Shown: positions 2,124 through 21,376 of the stretch, one piece after another | Layout of the letters: every line of letters starts with the position of its first letter | How positions within the stretch are numbered: position 1 is the stretch's first letter | NCBI GenBank assembly: GCA_002789015.1 | Contig: PFSJ01000019.1 | Span: 26,012 to 50,011 of the forward strand | Length of the DNA: 24,000 nucleotides | Reading direction: 5' to 3' | Source of the DNA: a candidate division WWE3 bacterium CG_4_9_14_0_2_um_filter_35_11 | Lineage (GTDB): Bacteria > Patescibacteriota > WWE3 > 2-01-FULL-39-13 | Notes under the pieces: generated by a model | What the model was told of the DNA's origin: nothing | The model's database searches: none | The model's input: the letters and a program-made list of their open reading frames with translations, nothing else | Translations under genes and position numbers: made by a program

Positions 2124-3503
2124 TTAAACAATCCTCATAAATAAATTTTCTGAATGTATTTCCCCTGTTATGATTTTTTCTATTTTTGATGATGTTTCCG
2201 GCATGATCGGAGCAATCAGACCTACAACCTCTAGGATTTTTTCGATTGCTGTATCTATTACAAGCTTTTGAGCTTCTCCTTCTAACTTCCACGGAGCTTC
2301 TGTGCTGAAATAATCATTAGCTGATCGAATAAGCTCTTGAACACTTGTTACTACTTCATTTAACTTAAAGTCCTCGTATGACATATTTATAAGGGCTACC
2401 CTTTCTTTTAAGGGGCTACCCTCATTTATAAACTTAGCCACTCTCGAAACCAAATTTCCTAATCCATTGGCTAAATTTGAATTATATTTTTCGTCAAACC
2501 ATTTCATACTGACATCACTATCGTCAGAATATGGCATACTTGCAGCAAGTAAATATCTTGTACCATCTACTCCATACCTATCAATCAAGTCTTGCGGAGA
2601 TATCACATTACCCAATGACTTTCCCATCTTGCGACCTTCAACATTATAATATCCATGAACAAAAATTCTTTTTGGCAAAGGTAAATCCAAAGCCAATAAA
2701 AGTGCTGGCCAAATTACAGAATGGAACCAATTATTACCCTTTCCTAAAAAATGCACATCTGCAGGCCAAAACTCTTCCTTATTCCAAAACTTTGTCGCAG
2801 AGTAATAATTCATCAGCGCCTCTATCCATACATAAGTTGTATGTGATGTATCCCACGGAATCGGAATCCCCCACGCAACATTTTGTCTTGAAGCCGACAA
2901 GTCATTCACGCCTTCATTAATTCTAGACAACATTTCGTTCTTCTTATTTTCTGGCTCTACCAAAAGCTCTTTACTGTCGATTAGTTCTTTAACCTTTGGA
3001 ATATATTTCGACAATCTAAAAAAGTAGTTTTCTTCTTCTTTGTACTCAATCTGGTCTGGCCTGTGTTCTGGACATTTTCCATCCACTAAATCTTTTTCCG
3101 ATTTAAATTCTTCACATCCCCAACAATAAATACCTTTGTAGACACCTTTGTAGATATCGCCTTTCTCCTGAAGCTTAATCAATAACTCCTTAACAATTTT
3201 TTCATGTCCAGGTAATGTCGTTCGCATGAATTGATCGTTACTTATATTTAGCTTTTTCCAGTATTCCTGCCATTTTAATGCTAATTCATCTACGAACTCT
3301 TGAGGTTTTTTGGATGCCATTTCTGCTGCCTTTGCAACTTTTTCCCCGTGCTCATCGGTTCCTGTTAAAAAGAAAACCTCCTTGCCTTGCGATCTTTGAT
3401 ATCTTGCAATGATATCTGCAAAAACGGTAGTTCCAGTATGCCCAATATGTGGAACATCATTTGAGTAATAAATAGGAGTTGTAATATAAAAACGCTCTGA
3501 CAT
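2124..3503 (-). CDS. metG: Methionyl-tRNA synthetase (short form, no C-terminal tRNA-binding domain)
   Basis: 459 aa. HIGH motif (VPHIGHTGT), KMSKS variant (RKMGKSLGN), zinc knuckle CWGCEEF..CPEH, WGIPIPWD and the anticodon-domain LGNLVSR helix. Confidence 0.95.
   Translation of the reverse strand: MSERFYITTPIYYSNDVPHIGHTGTTVFADIIARYQRSQGKEVFFLTGTDEHGEKVAKAAEMASKKPQEFVDELALKWQEYWKKLNISNDQFMRTTLPGHEKIVKELLIKLQEKGDIYKGVYKGIYCWGCEEFKSEKDLVDGKCPEHRPDQIEYKEEENYFFRLSKYIPKVKELIDSKELLVEPENKKNEMLSRINEGVNDLSASRQNVAWGIPIPWDTSHTTYVWIEALMNYYSATKFWNKEEFWPADVHFLGKGNNWFHSVIWPALLLALDLPLPKRIFVHGYYNVEGRKMGKSLGNVISPQDLIDRYGVDGTRYLLAASMPYSDDSDVSMKWFDEKYNSNLANGLGNLVSRVAKFINEGSPLKERVALINMSYEDFKLNEVVTSVQELIRSANDYFSTEAPWKLEGEAQKLVIDTAIEKILEVVGLIAPIMPETSSKIEKIITGEIHSENLFMRIV
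2385..2431. repeat. Mini-element copy A: ATTTATAA|GGGCTACCCT-N10-GGGCTACCCTC|ATTTATAA, inside metG
   Basis: Exact 10-mers at 2393-2402 and 2413-2422 (starts 20 bp apart). Perfect 8-bp direct repeats at 2385-2392 and 2424-2431. Core plus one flank is 39 bp, or 13 codons. Confidence 0.8.
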
Positions 3504-3509
3504 AACAAA

Positions 3510-3518
3510 AGTATATCA
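3510..3518 (-). promoter_or_regulatory. Extended -10 box TGATATACT, 6 nt upstream of the metG ATG (3503)
   Basis: The minus strand reads TGATATACTtttgttATG. The same 9-mer precedes the aldolase and GH1 genes. Confidence 0.55.
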
Positions 3519-3528
3519 TCTGCAAATA

Positions 3529-3538
3529 AGGCTACCCC
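3529..3538. repeat. Possible degenerate solo copy of the 10-mer (GGCTACCCCT), intergenic
   Basis: The plus strand reads aaATAAGGCTACCCCTATCTTATgg. It shares GGCTACCC with the GGGCTACCCT unit and is flanked by ATAA and TTAT. Confidence 0.3.
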
Positions 3539-6744: not shown

Positions 6745-6998
6745 TTCTTTTTGTATAAATCAACTACATGCTCACGCGCAATTTTATGGATATCAATTTC
6801 ATCAATGGGTTTACCACTTTTAACAGAACCCATAACCTCATCCAATGACTTAACTTTTTTCAAAACAACTTCGTTTTTCAAGTTAATTGAAAAGGTCACC
6901 TTATCAGAAGGCTTAATGCCAAGGCTATCTCTTACATATGAAGGAAGCGTAACCTGATATTTGGTTGTAAGTTTAGAAGACGCGTTCATGGCATACAT
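6729..6998 (-). CDS. vapB: AbrB/SpoVT-type antitoxin, VapB-like (second copy)
   Basis: YQVTLPSYVRDSLGIKPSDKV is an AbrB-type motif. The track ORF begins at a TTG at 7025. I prefer the in-frame ATG at 6998 (or 6989), but the start is uncertain. Confidence 0.7.
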   Translation of the reverse strand: MYAMNASSKLTTKYQVTLPSYVRDSLGIKPSDKVTFSINLKNEVVLKKVKSLDEVMGSVKSGKPIDEIDIHKIAREHVVDLYKKKWRLQ

Positions 6999-9223: not shown

Positions 9224-9232
9224 TGATATACT
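9224..9232 (+). promoter_or_regulatory. Extended -10 box TGATATACT, 7 nt upstream of the aldolase ATG (9240)
   Basis: The plus strand reads TGATATACTccacttaATG. Confidence 0.55.
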
Positions 9233-10064: not shown

Positions 10065-11134
10065 AAGCTATAAACTCAGCCGATCTACAAAATAAAACGA
10101 TTTTATATCGTTCGCCCTATGATATAGATATTGAATTCATAAACGGGAGTTATGTTGTAAAAGACACTTCAAGAATAGAAGCTACGATTCCAACTTTAAA
10201 ATATTTATTAGAGAAAAATTGCAAAATCGTTATATTAACGTGGGTTGGAAGACCAAACGGCATTGATAAAAGTTTGAGTACAAAACCACATGCCAAAGCA
10301 CTTTCTGATCTTCTTGGAGTTGCTATCGAACACGTCTCCGACTGCATTGGCGAAAAAGTTGAGTCGAAAATTAGCCAAATGAATCCAAAAGATATCCTGA
10401 TGCTTGAAAACACTAGGTTTTACAAAGAAGATTCAGAAAACTCAAAAGAATTTGCAAAACAATTAACAAAAGGATCTGACCTAATTGTTTTTGATGCATT
10501 TCCCCAATCACACAGAGAAAGTGCTTCTGTAACAGGAATTATGGATTTTTTACCAACATACGCAGGATTCTATCTTGAAAGTGAAGTAAACGGCCTTGAA
10601 AAGCTTTTGGATAACGTACAACGTCCTTATACAATAGTCTTTGGTGGGGCAAAAATTTCAGAGAAAGTTGATGAGATCGAAAGCTTGGCAAAAATTTCTG
10701 ACATGATATTAATAGGAGGAAACGTGAATTCAGCAAGGCAAGAACTCGAAGGTTTAAAACACTTGATAGATTCAACCAAGATAATAATCCCAAGCAAAAG
10801 CGAAATGATAGATGGATTGGATATAAACAAGGAAATAGCTCAAAGATACGTTGATATCATTGAAAGATCAAAAACTGTCTTTTGGGCAGGACCTCTTGGA
10901 AAATATGAAGAAGAAAAATACTCAAACGGAACAAAAATGATTGTACAAGAAATCTGTAAGATAAAAGCAAATGGAGGATTTTCTGTAGTAGCGGGCGGCG
11001 ACACAGTCGCCGCCCTAGATAAATTTGGCAGTAAATCCTCCGTTTCATACATCAGCCTTGCTGGCGGAGCAACTTTAGAATTTTTAGCCGGTAAAAAACT
11101 TCCGGCAATTGAAAAACTATGTATGCATCAATAG
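10055..11134 (+). CDS. pgk: Phosphoglycerate kinase (short, divergent)
   Basis: 359 aa with VGRP, LENTRFY, FDAFPQSHRESAS, GGAKISEKV, WAGPLGKYE, AGGDT and SLAGGATLEFL. Confidence 0.85.
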   Translation: MELKAINSADLQNKTILYRSPYDIDIEFINGSYVVKDTSRIEATIPTLKYLLEKNCKIVILTWVGRPNGIDKSLSTKPHAKALSDLLGVAIEHVSDCIGEKVESKISQMNPKDILMLENTRFYKEDSENSKEFAKQLTKGSDLIVFDAFPQSHRESASVTGIMDFLPTYAGFYLESEVNGLEKLLDNVQRPYTIVFGGAKISEKVDEIESLAKISDMILIGGNVNSARQELEGLKHLIDSTKIIIPSKSEMIDGLDINKEIAQRYVDIIERSKTVFWAGPLGKYEEEKYSNGTKMIVQEICKIKANGGFSVVAGGDTVAALDKFGSKSSVSYISLAGGATLEFLAGKKLPAIEKLCMHQ

Positions 11135-13259: not shown

Positions 13260-14489
13260 CTACAGTTTTAATTCGCCAGTTTTACATATTTCCGAATAAT
13301 ATTTGAATGATGGCCGTTTACTTCTTTTTAAAGTTTTCCTATCAACTCTTACCAAACCAAAACACGGCCAAAAGCCATGATGCCATTCATAATTATCTAA
13401 AAGTGACCAATGAAAATATCCTTTCAAATTGACACCTTTGTCTATCGCTTTTACACAAGATTCCAACATATCTCGAATAAAAGACTCTCTTTTTTCATCC
13501 TTATCGTCGGCAAGACCATTTTCGGTCACGAAAATATCAACACCATATTTTTTGAGTGATAAAAGCACATTCTCAAGCCCTTTTGGATATATCCACCAAC
13601 CCAAATCATTTGTAACATCATCTGGATTTTTTGTTTTTAGATTCTTGATTCTATTAGTAAAGTAATAATTTAAGCCAATTACGTCGAATTTATTTTTTAC
13701 GAGGAGGAAGAAAAATCCACTGCCGATGAAATTTAAAAATTTTGCCACTACATGATCTAATGGATTTTTTGATGATTTTGAAACCTCATGCCAGACAATG
13801 TTTTTGACAATTCCTATTATAGGGGCTACCCTTTTTTTAGAAGGGCTACCCTTTATGTCATCATATGCCCTATTATTTGCTCTAGCTAAATTGATTTGCA
13901 CCCACAATGATAAAACAGCACTTACTTTATTTGGCGGCCAAATTCCGTGGAAATATGACATATACACATAAACTTGAGGCTCATTTATTGTCAAAAAGAC
14001 ATCGATTAGATCATAAAATTCTTCTGCGCATTTTTTTGCATATTTCGCAAAATAACTTGGTGCATTAACATTCGTCCACCCACCGATTTTCGAAAACCAA
14101 ATTGGATTTGTGAAATGATGTAGAGTAACAAAAGTTTTCAAACCTCGAACTTTTGCAGCTTTTAGAACCTTTTTGTAGTGCAATATTTCTTTCTCATCAA
14201 AATTGCCTTGAGTTGGCTCTATTCTTGCCCATTCAATAGAAATTCGAACTGCATTGTTATTTAAATCAACACATAAATCAAAATCTTCCTCATATCGATT
14301 ATAGGAATCACATGCAATGCCAGATGCTTCCAATGGGAATTCTCTTTCAGAAACTACACCCGAACTTTGCGAAAAATATTTTTTAGATTGCTCCCATTCC
14401 CACCAATCAGAATTTGTATTATTACCTTCTATTTGATGTGCTGAAGTTGCTGTTCCCCAAATAAAATCTTTTGGAAAAGTATAATTCAC
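13260..14489 (-). CDS. GH1 family beta-glucosidase
   Basis: 409 aa. FPKDFIWGTATSAHQIEG, TINEPQV (acid/base) and FVTENGLAD (nucleophile). GTG start. Confidence 0.92.
   Translation of the reverse strand: MNYTFPKDFIWGTATSAHQIEGNNTNSDWWEWEQSKKYFSQSSGVVSEREFPLEASGIACDSYNRYEEDFDLCVDLNNNAVRISIEWARIEPTQGNFDEKEILHYKKVLKAAKVRGLKTFVTLHHFTNPIWFSKIGGWTNVNAPSYFAKYAKKCAEEFYDLIDVFLTINEPQVYVYMSYFHGIWPPNKVSAVLSLWVQINLARANNRAYDDIKGSPSKKRVAPIIGIVKNIVWHEVSKSSKNPLDHVVAKFLNFIGSGFFFLLVKNKFDVIGLNYYFTNRIKNLKTKNPDDVTNDLGWWIYPKGLENVLLSLKKYGVDIFVTENGLADDKDEKRESFIRDMLESCVKAIDKGVNLKGYFHWSLLDNYEWHHGFWPCFGLVRVDRKTLKRSKRPSFKYYSEICKTGELKL
13817..13856. repeat. Mini-element copy C: TTAT-AG-GGGCTACCCT-N10-GGGCTACCCT-TTAT, inside the GH1 gene
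   Basis: Exact 10-mers at 13823-13832 and 13843-13852. TTAT is present on both sides. The element adds 36 bp (12 codons), read as KGSPSKKRVAPI. Confidence 0.75.
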
Positions 14490-14495
14490 ATTCGC

Positions 14496-14504
14496 AGTAT
14501 ATCA
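14496..14504 (-). promoter_or_regulatory. Extended -10 box TGATATACT, 6 nt upstream of the GH1 GTG (14489)
   Basis: The minus strand reads TGATATACTgcgaatGTG. This is the third occurrence of this exact 9-mer at a gene start. Confidence 0.5.
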
Positions 14505-14521
14505 CGACAGATCGAGACACT

Positions 14522-14560
14522 TTATGAGGGCTACCCTTGTTTTTTAGGGGCTACCCTTAT
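14522..14560. repeat. Mini-element copy D: TTAT-GA-GGGCTACCCT-N10-GGGCTACCC-TTAT, at the 3' end of the kinase gene
   Basis: Exact 10-mers at 14528-14537 and 14548-14557, with TTAT at 14522-14525 and 14557-14560. The kinase stop codon (14531-14533) lies inside the element. Confidence 0.75.
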
Positions 14561-15205
14561 TGTAAAGATCGTCCCATGGTTTTCCCCGACATTACTTTTC
14601 ACGGTAATCTTTCCACCAAAATCTTTTTCAATAATTGATTTACAAATATAAAGGCCAAGGCCGCAATTATTATTTAATTCCCCTTTTGTCGAAAATCCAT
14701 TTTTAAAAACATCTTTCAAAATTCCTTGTGGAATACCTGGCCCATTATCCTTAATTTCAATTACAACCGACTCTTTAGACCTACCGGAATCAACCATTTT
14801 TACAGCTACAATTATCCAAACATCCTTTCCACCAGCCTCGATTGAGTTCTTGAAAAGATTGCAAATCACTCTTTTGAACTTTAACTTATTTCCATGCAAA
14901 AAATGCTCATTACCGAAGCGGTAGATAAAGTTGTTTTTCTTAAAGTTCCCACACACAGACGATATCGCATCATTAACACCAAACTCCTCATTCTTATTTT
15001 TACCAACGGGAGCGACACTAACTAATTCCTTTATATAACCCAACGATTCATGGATATCACTCAAATTTTCGAGTACATTCTGACTATCAAAATTTAAATT
15101 TCGATTTTTCAGATCTAGCAAACATTCGCACGAAATAATAGCTGAAGTTAACGGACTTTTAATGTCGTGAAGAATCTCGTCACTTTTGCTTGAGGACTTT
15201 CTCAT
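14531..15205 (-). CDS. Histidine kinase core (HisKA + HATPase_c) with no sensor or TM region
   Basis: 224 aa. H-box LHDIKSPL at residue 13, N-box NLFKNSIEA, G1 DNGPGI, F VFKNGFST and G2 GLGLYICK. A GAGGAG Shine-Dalgarno sequence lies 4 nt before the ATG. Confidence 0.85.
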   Translation of the reverse strand: MRKSSSKSDEILHDIKSPLTSAIISCECLLDLKNRNLNFDSQNVLENLSDIHESLGYIKELVSVAPVGKNKNEEFGVNDAISSVCGNFKKNNFIYRFGNEHFLHGNKLKFKRVICNLFKNSIEAGGKDVWIIVAVKMVDSGRSKESVVIEIKDNGPGIPQGILKDVFKNGFSTKGELNNNCGLGLYICKSIIEKDFGGKITVKSNVGENHGTIFTIRVAPKKQG

Positions 15206-16370
15206 AAATCTCCTCTAAATCATATGCTTTCGAATCCCAGCTATAATATTTTTCAATTATCTTTTTTGTTTCTGCATATCTATCAGGCTGAGCGTCAATT
15301 TTTAAAATTGCATCAGCCAATTCCTTAGCATCGATTTTCTCTAGGTATAACAAATTGGGGACATCAACAGTCAACTCAAATCCCGAAGCAACGACTTTGT
15401 TTCCACACGTCAATGCCTCGATTACAACTTTTGGCAATCCTTCGTGACTAGATGGCAATACAAAAAATTCGGCGCTTCTATAATATTTATGAGCAATAAA
15501 GTTGCTAACTTTCCCAAGATATTTGATACGAGATTCCAGATTATATTTTTTTATCAATGGATTTACAATTTCGTCTCTAAAGTCTTCGTCCCAAATACCA
15601 ACCAAAGATAATTTGAATTGAGTTGGCAAATAATGCAAGGATTCGACCAAAACATCAATATTTTTCCTCTTGCTAAGCCTCCCTATATTGAAAATAATCT
15701 TGTCATCACTTGAAAATCCTAAATCAACTTTCTCTCCTTCTTTTGCAAACCTATCCAAACTAACTGAATTTTCAACGACAACGATTGGAACCCTTGGGTT
15801 ATAAAATCTTTTCATTTCATCAACTAAACCAGTGCTAACAGCGATTAAAACTTTGGCGACCTTAGTGGACAGCAAGTCATTAAATTTCCAAATTGGATAT
15901 TCAAAGTATTTTGTCCAAAAATCCAAAGTTTGCCCCTGCTCTAGTGACGTTTCCTCACGACCCTTAATCGATCCATGATTAGTATGAACAACAGGAGTCT
16001 TATCAATAAATCCAAACAGATATTTGTATAACAAAAACCACACGCCCATTTGCTGGTGGTTGTGCACTATATCTATTTTTTTGAAAATCTTAAGGTAAGA
16101 ATAATACGGCAAGACGAAAAGCGATGTTGACAAAAATGGTCCAAATCGCCAAATAGCTCTCGGAAGATTATAAACCGTAATATTATTAGCTAATTTGTAG
16201 CTCAGTTTCCCTTGCTTCAGATTCTTTCCATTTAGATTACCGGTGAGGACGTATATTTGATTCCCCTGTATCTTTCCCTGAGCTATTGTTAAGTCGTATG
16301 GTCCGGGTGATAAACCTTCAGTTTGGACATTCTCGTCGGCAAAATCATAAATTATTCGGAGGATATTCAT
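15180..16370 (-). CDS. GT4-family (GT-B fold) glycosyltransferase
   Basis: 396 aa. C-terminal EGLPKVVIEALTCG (E-x7-E motif). Its length and layout are typical of GT4. Confidence 0.8.
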   Translation of the reverse strand: MNILRIIYDFADENVQTEGLSPGPYDLTIAQGKIQGNQIYVLTGNLNGKNLKQGKLSYKLANNITVYNLPRAIWRFGPFLSTSLFVLPYYSYLKIFKKIDIVHNHQQMGVWFLLYKYLFGFIDKTPVVHTNHGSIKGREETSLEQGQTLDFWTKYFEYPIWKFNDLLSTKVAKVLIAVSTGLVDEMKRFYNPRVPIVVVENSVSLDRFAKEGEKVDLGFSSDDKIIFNIGRLSKRKNIDVLVESLHYLPTQFKLSLVGIWDEDFRDEIVNPLIKKYNLESRIKYLGKVSNFIAHKYYRSAEFFVLPSSHEGLPKVVIEALTCGNKVVASGFELTVDVPNLLYLEKIDAKELADAILKIDAQPDRYAETKKIIEKYYSWDSKAYDLEEIYEKVLKQK

Positions 16371-20437: not shown

Positions 20438-21376
20438 TCAAGTAAGAGATTTTATCCAGTTAATAGTAGTTTTCAAACCTTCATCAAAACCAACCAGCGG
20501 TTTATACCCCAAGATACGACTTGCTTTTGAAATATCTGCTAAAGAAGATTTAACATCGGCAGGTCTTCCTTCAGAATACGTTGATGAAATTTTTTTACCT
20601 GTGACGTTGCAAATTTTATAAACAAGATCATTTAACGAAATAGATTTACCACAAGCAATATTAAAGACTTCTCCGAAAGAAGCTTTATTACTTGTGTCAC
20701 AGGCTATCAAATTAGCAGAAACAACATTATCTACAAAAGTAAAATCGCGCGAATTGCTCCCGTCGCCATAAATTGTTGGGCTTTTATCATGCAAAAACAT
20801 ATTTACAAACTTAGGTATAACTGCTGAGTATTCGGATCTAAATGATTGATTTGGACCAAAAACATTGAAATACCTAAAAGTTATAGTCTCTAAACCATAT
20901 AATCTAAAGAAAACTTTGCAGTACTCCTCTCCTGCAAGTTTCTGAATAGCATATGGTGATTTTGGATTTGTTGGCATTGATTCAACCTTATATTTTGAAT
21001 CCAAATCGCCATAAACAGAGGATGACCCCGCATACACAAACCTTTTCACTCCATTATCCCTTGCAGAAATAAGCATATTAAGTGTACCTAATACATTAAT
21101 TTCATTCGTTTGGATTGGGTCTTCAACCGATCTTAACACTGATGGCAATGCCGCATGGTGTAATACATAGTCAATGCCTTTCGTTACTGATAATGCCAAG
21201 TCAATATTAGAAATATCACCATTAATAAATTCGACGTCATCAATACAATCAGTTAAATTTGATAAACTTCCTGTGGATAAATTATCAACTATACGAACGC
21301 TATCATTTCTAGCTAAAATCTTTTTAACTATATTCGAACCAATAAAACCGGCACCACCTGTTACTAGAACTTTCAT
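20438..21376 (-). CDS. NAD-dependent nucleotide-sugar 4-epimerase (WbpP/WbgU-like, UDP-GlcNAc/UDP-Glc 4-epimerase type)
   Basis: 312 aa with MKVLVTGGAGFIGS, DNLSTGSLSNL, FINGDISN, SPYAIQK, RYFNVFGP and GDGSNSRDF. Confidence 0.75.
   Translation of the reverse strand: MKVLVTGGAGFIGSNIVKKILARNDSVRIVDNLSTGSLSNLTDCIDDVEFINGDISNIDLALSVTKGIDYVLHHAALPSVLRSVEDPIQTNEINVLGTLNMLISARDNGVKRFVYAGSSSVYGDLDSKYKVESMPTNPKSPYAIQKLAGEEYCKVFFRLYGLETITFRYFNVFGPNQSFRSEYSAVIPKFVNMFLHDKSPTIYGDGSNSRDFTFVDNVVSANLIACDTSNKASFGEVFNIACGKSISLNDLVYKICNVTGKKISSTYSEGRPADVKSSLADISKASRILGYKPLVGFDEGLKTTINWIKSLT

Follow-up and report, generated by a model that had tools for sequence, protein, structure and literature searches.

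The 3' end of a histidine-kinase-like gene in a 24,000-nt stretch of DNA from a candidate division WWE3 bacterium (contig PFSJ01000019.1; the whole stretch is referred to below as the window) is formed by two copies of a short palindromic repeat, the second of which supplies the stop codon. On the plus strand positions 14522-14560 read TTATGA GGGCTACCC TTGTTTTTTAG GGGCTACCC TTAT. The kinase is encoded on the minus strand, where the unit takes the form GGGTAGCCC and its two copies are found 20 nt apart. We consider this stretch, with a probability of about 0.6, to be a cluster of an undescribed WWE3 repeat family that resembles the repetitive extragenic palindromic (REP) elements and bacterial interspersed mosaic elements (BIMEs), in which the kinase stop was displaced when one unit became two. 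A preliminary description of the stretch had assumed the clean insertion of a 35-bp transposon. That the repeat supplies the stop is well supported by the relatives, but the event would be an expansion of repeat units at a hot spot.

Residues 106-218 of the 224-residue kinase match the Pfam family HATPase_c (E=1.3e-20), and this match reaches the RV of the RVAP encoded by the first unit. The protein ends in GTIFTIRVAPKKQG (...TIRVAPKKQG), of which the final eight codons, RVAPKKQG, are encoded by the repeat, as is the stop. This stop is a TAG (14533-14531) within the promoter-proximal unit (14528-14536). The preliminary description was therefore right in attributing the stop codon to the repeat, and also in the plus-strand layout with two copies of GGGCTACCC. 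Between the new stop and the promoter of the downstream GH1 gene lies the relic of a former C-terminal tail, which leads up to the TGA of TGATATACT. The stop had been said to have moved by 27 nt; the actual distance between the new stop and the old TGA is 26 nt, or 29 nt from start to start. No further copy of the relic tail was found in 15 loci, which indicates that it is not itself a repeat. Assemblies from JGI, ENA and Logan contain the exact 224-aa kinase on 21 contigs, and both units were found at the kinase site in all 10 contigs that were fetched. Because these contigs were assembled independently the junction is not an assembly artefact, which settles the doubt about a misassembly that had been raised before. 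In the samples compared the two-unit allele is fixed. A programmed -1 frameshift on CCT AAA AAA C would restore ...TRVALIKCLDLS but was judged unlikely, the in-frame heptamer U_AAA_AAA being non-canonical. Transcriptional slippage at the A-run was also judged unlikely, since this run is short (6 nt). A frameshifted kinase product would be expected to carry the peptide ...KKTRVALIKCLDLS.

The kinase-GH1 junction was compared with that in related WWE3 loci (L numbers; Table 1). In five orthologous loci (L041, L131, L133, L134 and L138) the kinase stop is the TGA of TGATATACT. In L131 (P0004) the kinase ends ...TIRVAPIKCLDLA on this TGA, and the tail DNA, which is identical to that of the window at 19 of 21 nt, is translated as IKCLDLA. 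Because L131 translates its counterpart up to the TGA, the IKCLDLS stretch of the window was formerly coding. In the multiple alignment the window and L131 differ by one gap of exactly 20 nt, which equals one repeat period and comprises unit 2 and the spacer. As 20 mod 3 is 2, the additional period shifts the frame; the second unit is consequently read G-TAG and ends the protein. This implies that the frame shift is due to a change from one unit to two and not to an insertion of 31+4 bp.

The insertion model had derived the kinase from a unit-free gene ending ...TIKCLDLS by the acquisition of a 31-bp core plus one ATAA. Its excision arithmetic is correct, because removal of these nucleotides leaves ATA AAG TGT CTC GAT CTG TCG (14525-14505) followed by the TGA of TGATATACT. 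The expectation that the KCLDLS tail exists elsewhere was borne out in part: the tail IKCLDLA is coding in L131, but it stands alongside a unit and not in place of one. The unit-free ...TIKCLDLS end is present in no orthologue; unit-free kinases end in FTLVFP, FTMIFP, FVILI or FKISVPLKISSNLS. Moreover, the tail-keeping L131 already has the RVAP unit, and the difference amounts to 20 nt, not 35. The proposed replacement of six residues by eight requires an ancestral state that is seen in no orthologue. The ATAA that was taken for a target duplication fits better as the outer part of a palindrome, ATAAGGG...CCCTTAT: in well-preserved intergenic copies (L142/L144, L146 20387) the flanks pair as inverted repeats at 5-6 of 6 positions, and no consistent direct repeat was found to flank the copies at L144 3008 and L144 4137 or those in L143 and L041.

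These comparisons are compatible with the following course of events. The kinase 3' end would be a recurrent site for units. The state nearest to that of the window may have been one in-frame unit (RVAP) followed by the 7-codon tail IKCLDLS up to the TGA in the GH1 -10 box. The window lineage would then have gained a 20-nt period, by which the frame shifted and the TAG at the centre of unit 2 became the stop. The protein would have lost IKCLDLS and gained KKQG, the old tail staying behind as an untranslated relic of 21 nt. We favour a gain in the lineage of the window over a loss in the relatives, because five orthologues, among them L134 with a C-terminus of equal length, read to the same TGA. 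The change is probably harmless or neutral to the kinase, because it is located at or beyond the final strand of the HATPase_c fold. The units may have spread by the copying of unit-spacer-unit blocks, either through replication slippage or through template switching between units; alternatively, a hairpin-specific single-strand DNA enzyme of the RAYT (REP-associated tyrosine transposase)/IS200 type could have spread them. Local copy number and orientation would change by gain, loss and inversion of periods. A replication-linked and hairpin-specific mechanism would agree with the strand bias of the units (10 of 11) and with block copying, both described below.

With up to one mismatch allowed, 7 copies of GGGCTACCC were counted in the window where 0.81 are expected, and none of 100 shuffles gave as many as 7. 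Doublets with a start-to-start spacing of exactly 20 nt are present at three sites (2393/2413, 13823/13843 and 14528/14548). The 9-mer is the core of a full unit of 15-17 nt, the palindrome TA[AG]GGG-TAG-CCC[CT]TA, the orientation of which is set by the central triplet alone (TAG versus CTA). It was found, as GGGCTACCC or GGGTAGCCC, in every related WWE3 locus that was fetched. Relatives that carry the family have a GH1 that is 72-92% identical, and a further one has a MetRS that is 70% identical. In a sample of 116 kb of WWE3 loci (35% GC), part of which had been chosen for carrying the motif, the 9-mer is the second most frequent one with 41 exact copies, next to A/T-rich 9-mers of low complexity. 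In L131 and L133, for instance, a single unit is found at the end of the kinase. Within direct doublets the spacing is 18-20 nt and the spacer is A-rich on the gene strand; the spacers of doublets other than that of the kinase fit the consensus YTWWAAARAAR. A GT2 gene of L146 contains a triplet of units (20652-20700), and inverted pairs with perfect hairpins were found in L133 (1-60), L135 (4623-4652), L144 (3637-3666) and the UvrD genes of L146 and L150. The clusters span 9-49 nt.

In the 34 kb that were sampled from the window genome there are seven clusters, five of which lie wholly within genes and in frame (one each in MetRS, GH1 and UvrD, two in GT2); of the remaining two, one straddles the kinase stop and one is intergenic. 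Ten of the 11 exact units in these 34 kb are on one strand, even within a gene of opposite orientation, whereas L144 and L151 carry units in both orientations. In L151, the distant relative with the 70% identical MetRS, all seven clusters are intergenic. They lie directly 3' of stop codons or between divergent genes and are mostly inverted arrays with a period of 17 nt. A variant of the family, GGGTAACCC/GGGTTACCC, is also present in L151, and one copy in this locus, AAAAAGGGTAACCCCTTTTTTTT, resembles a bidirectional terminator. Immediately upstream of the MetRS promoter the window has one degenerate unit, L143 a doublet (168-196) and L151 a triplet (6854-6896). This appears to be an old site with variable copy number.

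A scan of genome contigs with the pattern GGGCTACCCN{8,14}GGGCTACCC gave, among the matches listed, coding repeats of high-GC genomes, and L041, from a WWE3 metagenome-assembled genome, was the only relevant one. With a stricter doublet pattern six loci were obtained from metagenomes, of which one (L140) was a high-GC false match, and none from viral contigs. An Rfam search of the window and L144 at the gathering threshold returned two tRNAs and nothing else, and literature searches yielded no description of the motif.

The units are able to fold. The inverted pairs have perfect stems of 11-20 bp, and that of L133 folds at -45.4 kcal/mol (z = -8.0) and that of L135 at -24.3 kcal/mol. Because the unit itself is palindromic, direct doublets fold too: on the gene strand values of -14.8 to -16.8 kcal/mol (z = -1.9 to -3.6) were obtained, with a hairpin of about 9 bp that has a central mismatch. 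For the kinase doublet the gene-strand RNA gave -15.4 kcal/mol (z = -2.45). The centres of the two partners of an inverted pair are always complementary (TAG/CTA, CAG/CTG or TAA/TTA). At the orthologous UvrD site GGGTAGCCC/GGGCTACCC in L150 corresponds to GGGCAGCCC/GGGCTGCCC in L146, which is a compensatory change from T:A to C:G. The window agrees with L135 (GH1) and with L138 (MetRS) at all 18 unit positions, whereas identity at third codon positions in these comparisons is no more than about 0.60-0.63 and the spacers differ; just about 3% of placements in the two genes match the conservation of the units. The units thus appear to be conserved above background and may be under constraint or homogenization. 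In the GT2 gene two clusters that are 265 nt apart share an identical unit-spacer-unit block (GGGTAGCCCctctttttgaaGGG...CCC), which shows that whole blocks get copied. The units in this gene follow the orientation of the chromosome strand and not that of the gene.

At the other sites the replacement of existing sequence seems to prevail. The two units of the GH1 doublet are identical in L133 and L135, and the spacer differs at 4 of 11 nt. Excision by the rule proposed for the kinase would leave AYDD-IIGIVKN in GH1, but all 120 homologues keep 28-34 residues at this position (33 in the window). The nearest relatives have a degenerate doublet of the same length, such as AAG GGT AGC TAT TTA AAA AAA GAC GAT GCT CCA in L131. 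The MetRS doublet is kept in L138, L150 and P0137-P0138. The linker slice in which it is found has 60 residues and is shorter than that of most unit-free orthologues (mostly 63-71). The UvrD hairpin, about 9.5 kb past window position 1 in L146 (which is the window genome) and at 4813-4857 in L150, encodes a segment that exceeds the unit-free loop of L151 by just 3-4 residues. Thus the excision rule fails at GH1, MetRS and UvrD, where the predicted loops are far shorter than those of any orthologue. The net change in length relative to unit-free orthologues ranges from -11 to +5 aa. Since loop lengths barely change, patch replacement, conversion or evolution in place fits better than insertion. 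Real presence/absence blocks occur as well, namely at the junction of the LPG_synthase and glycosyltransferase (GT) genes. In the window these genes have an ATGA overlap without a unit (16367-16370), and two to three units are present there in six relatives. In L041 (CALRDH010000001.1, 24-1565) a direct doublet (343-351, 362-370) joins LPG_synthase and GT1 into a single open reading frame (ORF) of 513 aa with the repeat-encoded linker GVAPIKKGSPY.

Table 1. Features of the kinase-GH1 junction, other copies of the repeat and kinase ends in related loci (positions refer to the window unless a locus is given)
Feature	Position	Strand	Remarks
Histidine-kinase-like gene	14531..15205	-	224 aa; HDIKSPL H-box and HATPase_c domain
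Repeat unit 1	14548..14556	-	GGGTAGCCC; in-frame R-V-A-P; unit at matching site in L131 and L133
Spacer	14537..14547	-	11 nt, A-rich; CTAAAAAACAA on gene strand; codes P-K-K-Q; predicted hairpin loop
Repeat unit 2	14528..14536	-	read G-TAG; holds kinase stop
Relic of former C-terminal tail	14505..14525	-	ATA AAG TGT CTC GAT CTG TCG = IKCLDLS; now untranslated
TGATATACT at GH1	14496..14504	-	extended -10-like box, 6 nt upstream of GH1 GTG 14489
GH1 beta-glucosidase gene	13260..14489	-	GTG start, apparently leaderless; Pfam Glyco_hydro_1, E=1.1e-78
GH1 doublet	13823..13851	-	in frame; variable loop KGSPSKKRVAP
MetRS doublet	2393..2421	-	in frame; linker between catalytic and anticodon-binding domains, EGSPLKERVAL
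TGATATACT at MetRS	3510-3518	-	upstream of MetRS ATG 3503
Degenerate single unit	3529..3537	-	GGGTAGCCT on gene strand; intergenic, 10 nt upstream of MetRS TGATATACT box
TGATATACT at DeoC	9224-9232	+	upstream of DeoC ATG 9240
UvrD hairpin	L146 12449-12493		in frame; perfect 13-bp stem GGGCAGCCCCTGC-TAAC-GCAGGGGCTGCCC; codes RAAPANAGAAL
GT2 doublet and triplet	L146 20387-20415 and 20652-20700	opposite strand	common 11-nt spacer; encode RVALQKEGLPRKKKGYP and RATLQKEGLP
L151 clusters	L151 4093-4124, 5224-5249, 6854-6896, 10496-10538, 16579-16604, 16670		GC-richer spacers
Kinase end, L041			TTT ACA CTG GTT TTC CCG TGA-TATACT; no unit; FTLVFP-stop
Kinase end, L138			as L041, with M and I for L and V; no unit; FTMIFP-stop
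Kinase end, L133			ACA ATA AGG GTA GCC CTT AAA TGA-TATACT; one unit; RVALK-stop
Kinase end, L131 (P0004)			ACA ATA AGG GTA GCC CCT ATA AAG TGT CTC GAT TTG GCG TGA-TATACT; one unit and tail; RVAPIKCLDLA-stop
Kinase end, L134			no unit; FKISVPLKISSNLS-stop; length and TGA as in L131
Kinase end, L135 and L139			locus rearranged, additional 388-390 aa ORF; not comparable

The TGA at which the orthologous kinases end belongs to TGATATACT, which had been proposed to be the -10 box of GH1. All three exact copies of TGATATACT in the window are located 6-7 nt upstream of start codons, which makes the promoter reading plausible, and it is a reasonable inference that TGATATACT would be an extended -10 box that drives leaderless mRNAs. 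The proposal thus agrees with the position of the copies, while the promoter function itself is inferred. All orthologous junctions have kept TGATATACT together with the 12 nt that follow it. A generic promoter scan did not call TGATATACT; its single match took the overlapping GTGATA as -35 region with TATACT downstream. TGNTATAAT was absent from the window. The gene-strand hairpin of the kinase is followed by UCAUAAAGUG and has no U-tract on its 3' side, as an intrinsic terminator would have, and the sole terminator-like match at the kinase copy is on the antisense (+) strand.

The family was compared with repeat systems from other bacteria. REP elements and BIMEs are known in Enterobacteriaceae, Pseudomonas and Stenotrophomonas (SMAG) and are thought to be mobilized by RAYT transposases. 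REP elements have been described as GC-rich sequences of 21-65 bp, single or clustered, with GTAG- and RAYT-associated subtypes, and the Rickettsia palindromic elements (RPEs) as in-frame intragenic palindromes of about 105-146 bp (PMC3184786). [quoted passage not shown] Like REP elements and BIMEs, the WWE3 units are short GC-rich imperfect palindromes that form stem-loops (the doublet measures about 29-37 nt), with many dispersed copies that are single or clustered, direct or inverted, and often located just 3' of stop codons. However, the unit is smaller, with its 9-nt core in a palindrome of 15-17 nt. GTAG is present in every canonical WWE3 unit, but in a central position (GG-GTAG-CCC), whereas SMAG-type REPs have it 5' of the palindrome. 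Most clusters of the window genome, in contrast to those of L151, are not extragenic, and the host is a bacterium of the candidate phyla radiation (CPR) with a tiny AT-rich genome, in the gene tables of which (about 34 kb) no RAYT was seen. With RPEs the family shares in-frame palindromic repeats in coding genes, essential ones included, that add peptide to tolerated surface regions. RPEs are net insertions of tens of residues, whereas the WWE3 units (9-37 nt) replace loop sequence, and there is no sequence relationship. As with QMITE1 and QMITE2, copies overlap gene 3' ends and an adjacent indel switches between an extended and a truncated protein, as for EnhC (PMC5896051). QMITEs are, however, far longer classical MITEs with terminal inverted and direct repeats, and the WWE3 units lack consistent target duplications. 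MITEs in general measure about 50-500 bp, against 9-49 nt for the WWE3 clusters, for which neither a related insertion sequence (IS) nor IS-like terminal repeats were seen. The family also resembles the DNA uptake sequences (DUS) and uptake signal sequences (USS) in its exact core of 9-12 nt with AT-rich flanks, its over-representation, its presence in tolerant frames and loops and its inverted pairs at gene ends; it differs from them in the strand bias of the 34-kb sample, palindromic units, compensatory pair changes and block copying. The WWE3 units seem to behave like REP/BIME, RPE and QMITE sequences, yet they lack defining features of each.

A number of observations weigh against a REP/BIME-like family whose expansion in the window lineage moved the stop. 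On a tree based on GH1, (((L041, L131), window), (L133, L135)) with L134, L138 and L139 outside, the unit-bearing kinases are not monophyletic and the unit-free L041 is the sister of L131. Because of this the kinase site must have changed several times or recombined. At four intragenic sites the units stand in for loop sequence, whose length hardly changes on balance. A plain tandem duplication of flanks like those of L131 does not account for the extra period: the spacer CTAAAAAACAA agrees with CTATAAAGTGT at just 6 of 11 positions. It is equally conceivable that the L131 and L133 lineages lost a period by slippage between the direct repeats of 9 bp. Neither a transposase nor a RAYT nor another mobilizing gene was found in the gene tables of about 34 kb of the window genome, in which selected ORFs were checked against Pfam. 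Finally, REP elements are extragenic by definition, yet five of the seven clusters are wholly inside genes.

The possibility of deletion leads to the opposite direction of change, in which the doublet and the truncated kinase would be older and L131 and L133 would have lost the 20-nt period by slippage, re-opening the tail in L131. Direct repeats of 9-10 bp at a distance of 20 nt classically invite deletion by slippage, doublets prevail in the window genome, and a tail of seven codons could remain open by chance. However, the unit-free C-terminus of L134 equals that of L131 in length and ends on the same TGA, the use of this TGA by five orthologues suggests that reading through to it is older, and the predicted deletion product ...CCCTCATAAAG differs from the L131 sequence ...CCCCTATAAAG at two positions. 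We regard this direction as unlikely. A discrete 31-bp mini-transposon that inserted once into a unit-free ...TIKCLDLS kinase and duplicated an ATAA target is very unlikely. It would account for the reconstruction arithmetic, for the ATAA that flanks all three window copies and for the IKCLDL[S/A] tail that is truly coding in an orthologue, and the presence or absence of blocks of about 35 nt does occur at the LPG_synthase/GT junction, which is empty in the window and has units in six relatives. Yet its predicted empty site is present in no orthologue and the orthologue with the tail has one unit and a gap of 20 nt. Furthermore, ATAA...TTAT is an inverted-repeat extension without matching direct repeats at L144 3008, L143 and L041, and excision would give impossible loop lengths in GH1 and MetRS.

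Two further readings concern the reason why the units are there. The 9-mer could be a DNA-uptake signal like the DUS of Neisseria or the USS of Pasteurellaceae, which would accumulate in place by biased uptake and recombination in loops, C-termini, intergenic hairpins and other DNA under weak constraint, with the kinase change as a by-product. CPR bacteria are generally predicted to rely on DNA uptake. The exact core with AT-rich flanks and its extreme over-representation would fit such a signal, as would the conservation of units above background, the inverted pairs at gene ends, which recall DUS terminators, the nearly unchanged loop length at four intragenic sites, and the degenerate or proto versions at orthologous positions (GH1 loop of L131 and L041; kinase end of L134). 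Uptake signals are, on the other hand, roughly strand-symmetric, and in the 34 kb sampled from the window genome exact units keep almost entirely to one strand. In addition, the compensatory GGGCAGCCC/GGGCTGCCC pair keeps the hairpin and destroys the motif, whole unit-spacer-unit blocks are copied, 20-nt indels are involved, and the literature searches found no support, with nothing relevant on uptake sequences in Patescibacteria. This makes an uptake signal quite unlikely, and the stronger claim that GGGTAGCCC would be an uptake signal specific for a WWE3 species group, the first in the candidate phyla radiation, is very doubtful. If it were true, uptake-signal drive would keep rewriting loops, C-termini and gene boundaries, as in the kinase truncation and the LPG-synthase/glycosyltransferase fusion of L041. 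Alternatively, the doublet might be kept for local regulation, its RNA hairpin at the kinase stop insulating or tuning the GH1 promoter or stabilizing the kinase mRNA. The folding of the gene-strand RNA agrees with this, as do the units just upstream of two of the three window TGATATACT promoters and the intergenic clusters directly 3' of stop codons in L151, and REP and SMAG units were reported to change the stability of upstream transcripts (PMC3184786). However, the gene-strand hairpin is without a U-tract, the terminator-like match is antisense only, the distance between unit and -10 box ranges from 3 to 23 nt among orthologues, and close relatives have no unit at the kinase site. Local regulation is accordingly highly improbable. 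A role in the orientation of FtsK was also considered, as GGGTAG in the unit fits GGGNAG from the FtsK-orienting polar sequence (KOPS) motif of E. coli; it was not favoured, since the units are palindromic and form inverted pairs in relatives.

The kinase event itself is modest, and the repeat family behind it is more interesting. CPR bacteria have tiny, gene-dense genomes, and in most descriptions these contain few repeats and little mobile DNA. Here a family with a 9-nt core is common to diverged WWE3 lineages, is present in the essential MetRS and UvrD, sets the stop of a kinase and fuses ORFs in L041. Repeat-driven protein tinkering as in Rickettsia and Coxiella would then extend to the candidate phyla radiation, with units that are much smaller. 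Annotation is affected, since unrelated proteins have repeat-encoded peptides in common (RVAP, GSP and GLP, for example), and changes of the 20-nt period could be markers in strain typing. An activity that copies or recognizes short hairpins, be it a RAYT-like enzyme, a competence receptor or template switching, would inform CPR biology.

A few additional observations were made in the loci compared. Between kinase and GH1 L135 and L139 have an ORF of 388-390 aa on the opposite strand (L135 6483-7649 (-), L139 4757-5929 (-)); the two proteins are 41% identical to each other. It occupies the exact place of the repeat units in other genomes, and the kinases there end in FVILI and FLDRVA, respectively, followed by the stop. 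The ORF was rejected as a transposase or parent element because it has no Pfam match and no flanking units, and it bears no relation to another 390-aa ORF of the same sample. At the LPG_synthase gene the C-terminal codons GGGGCTGCCC (G-A-A-L) are complementary to the downstream unit or to its GGGCAGCCC variant (L139 2916-2995; L134 3464-3561). In these two loci a hairpin is able to span the LPG_synthase stop, with native coding sequence as one arm. Another frequent GC-rich 9-mer, GGCGGCGAC, turned out to be a single conserved palindromic coding motif of PGK and not a repeat family; at window positions 10994-11014 GGCGGCGACACAGTCGCCGCC forms a perfect palindrome of 21 nt in PGK that codes for GGDTVAA and is kept in all relatives at one orthologous site. 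The FtsK gene call differs between two strains of the window organism (L146 12997-15274, L147 7292-9559): 648 aa with an upstream antisense ORF of 71 aa were called in one strain and 755 aa in the other.

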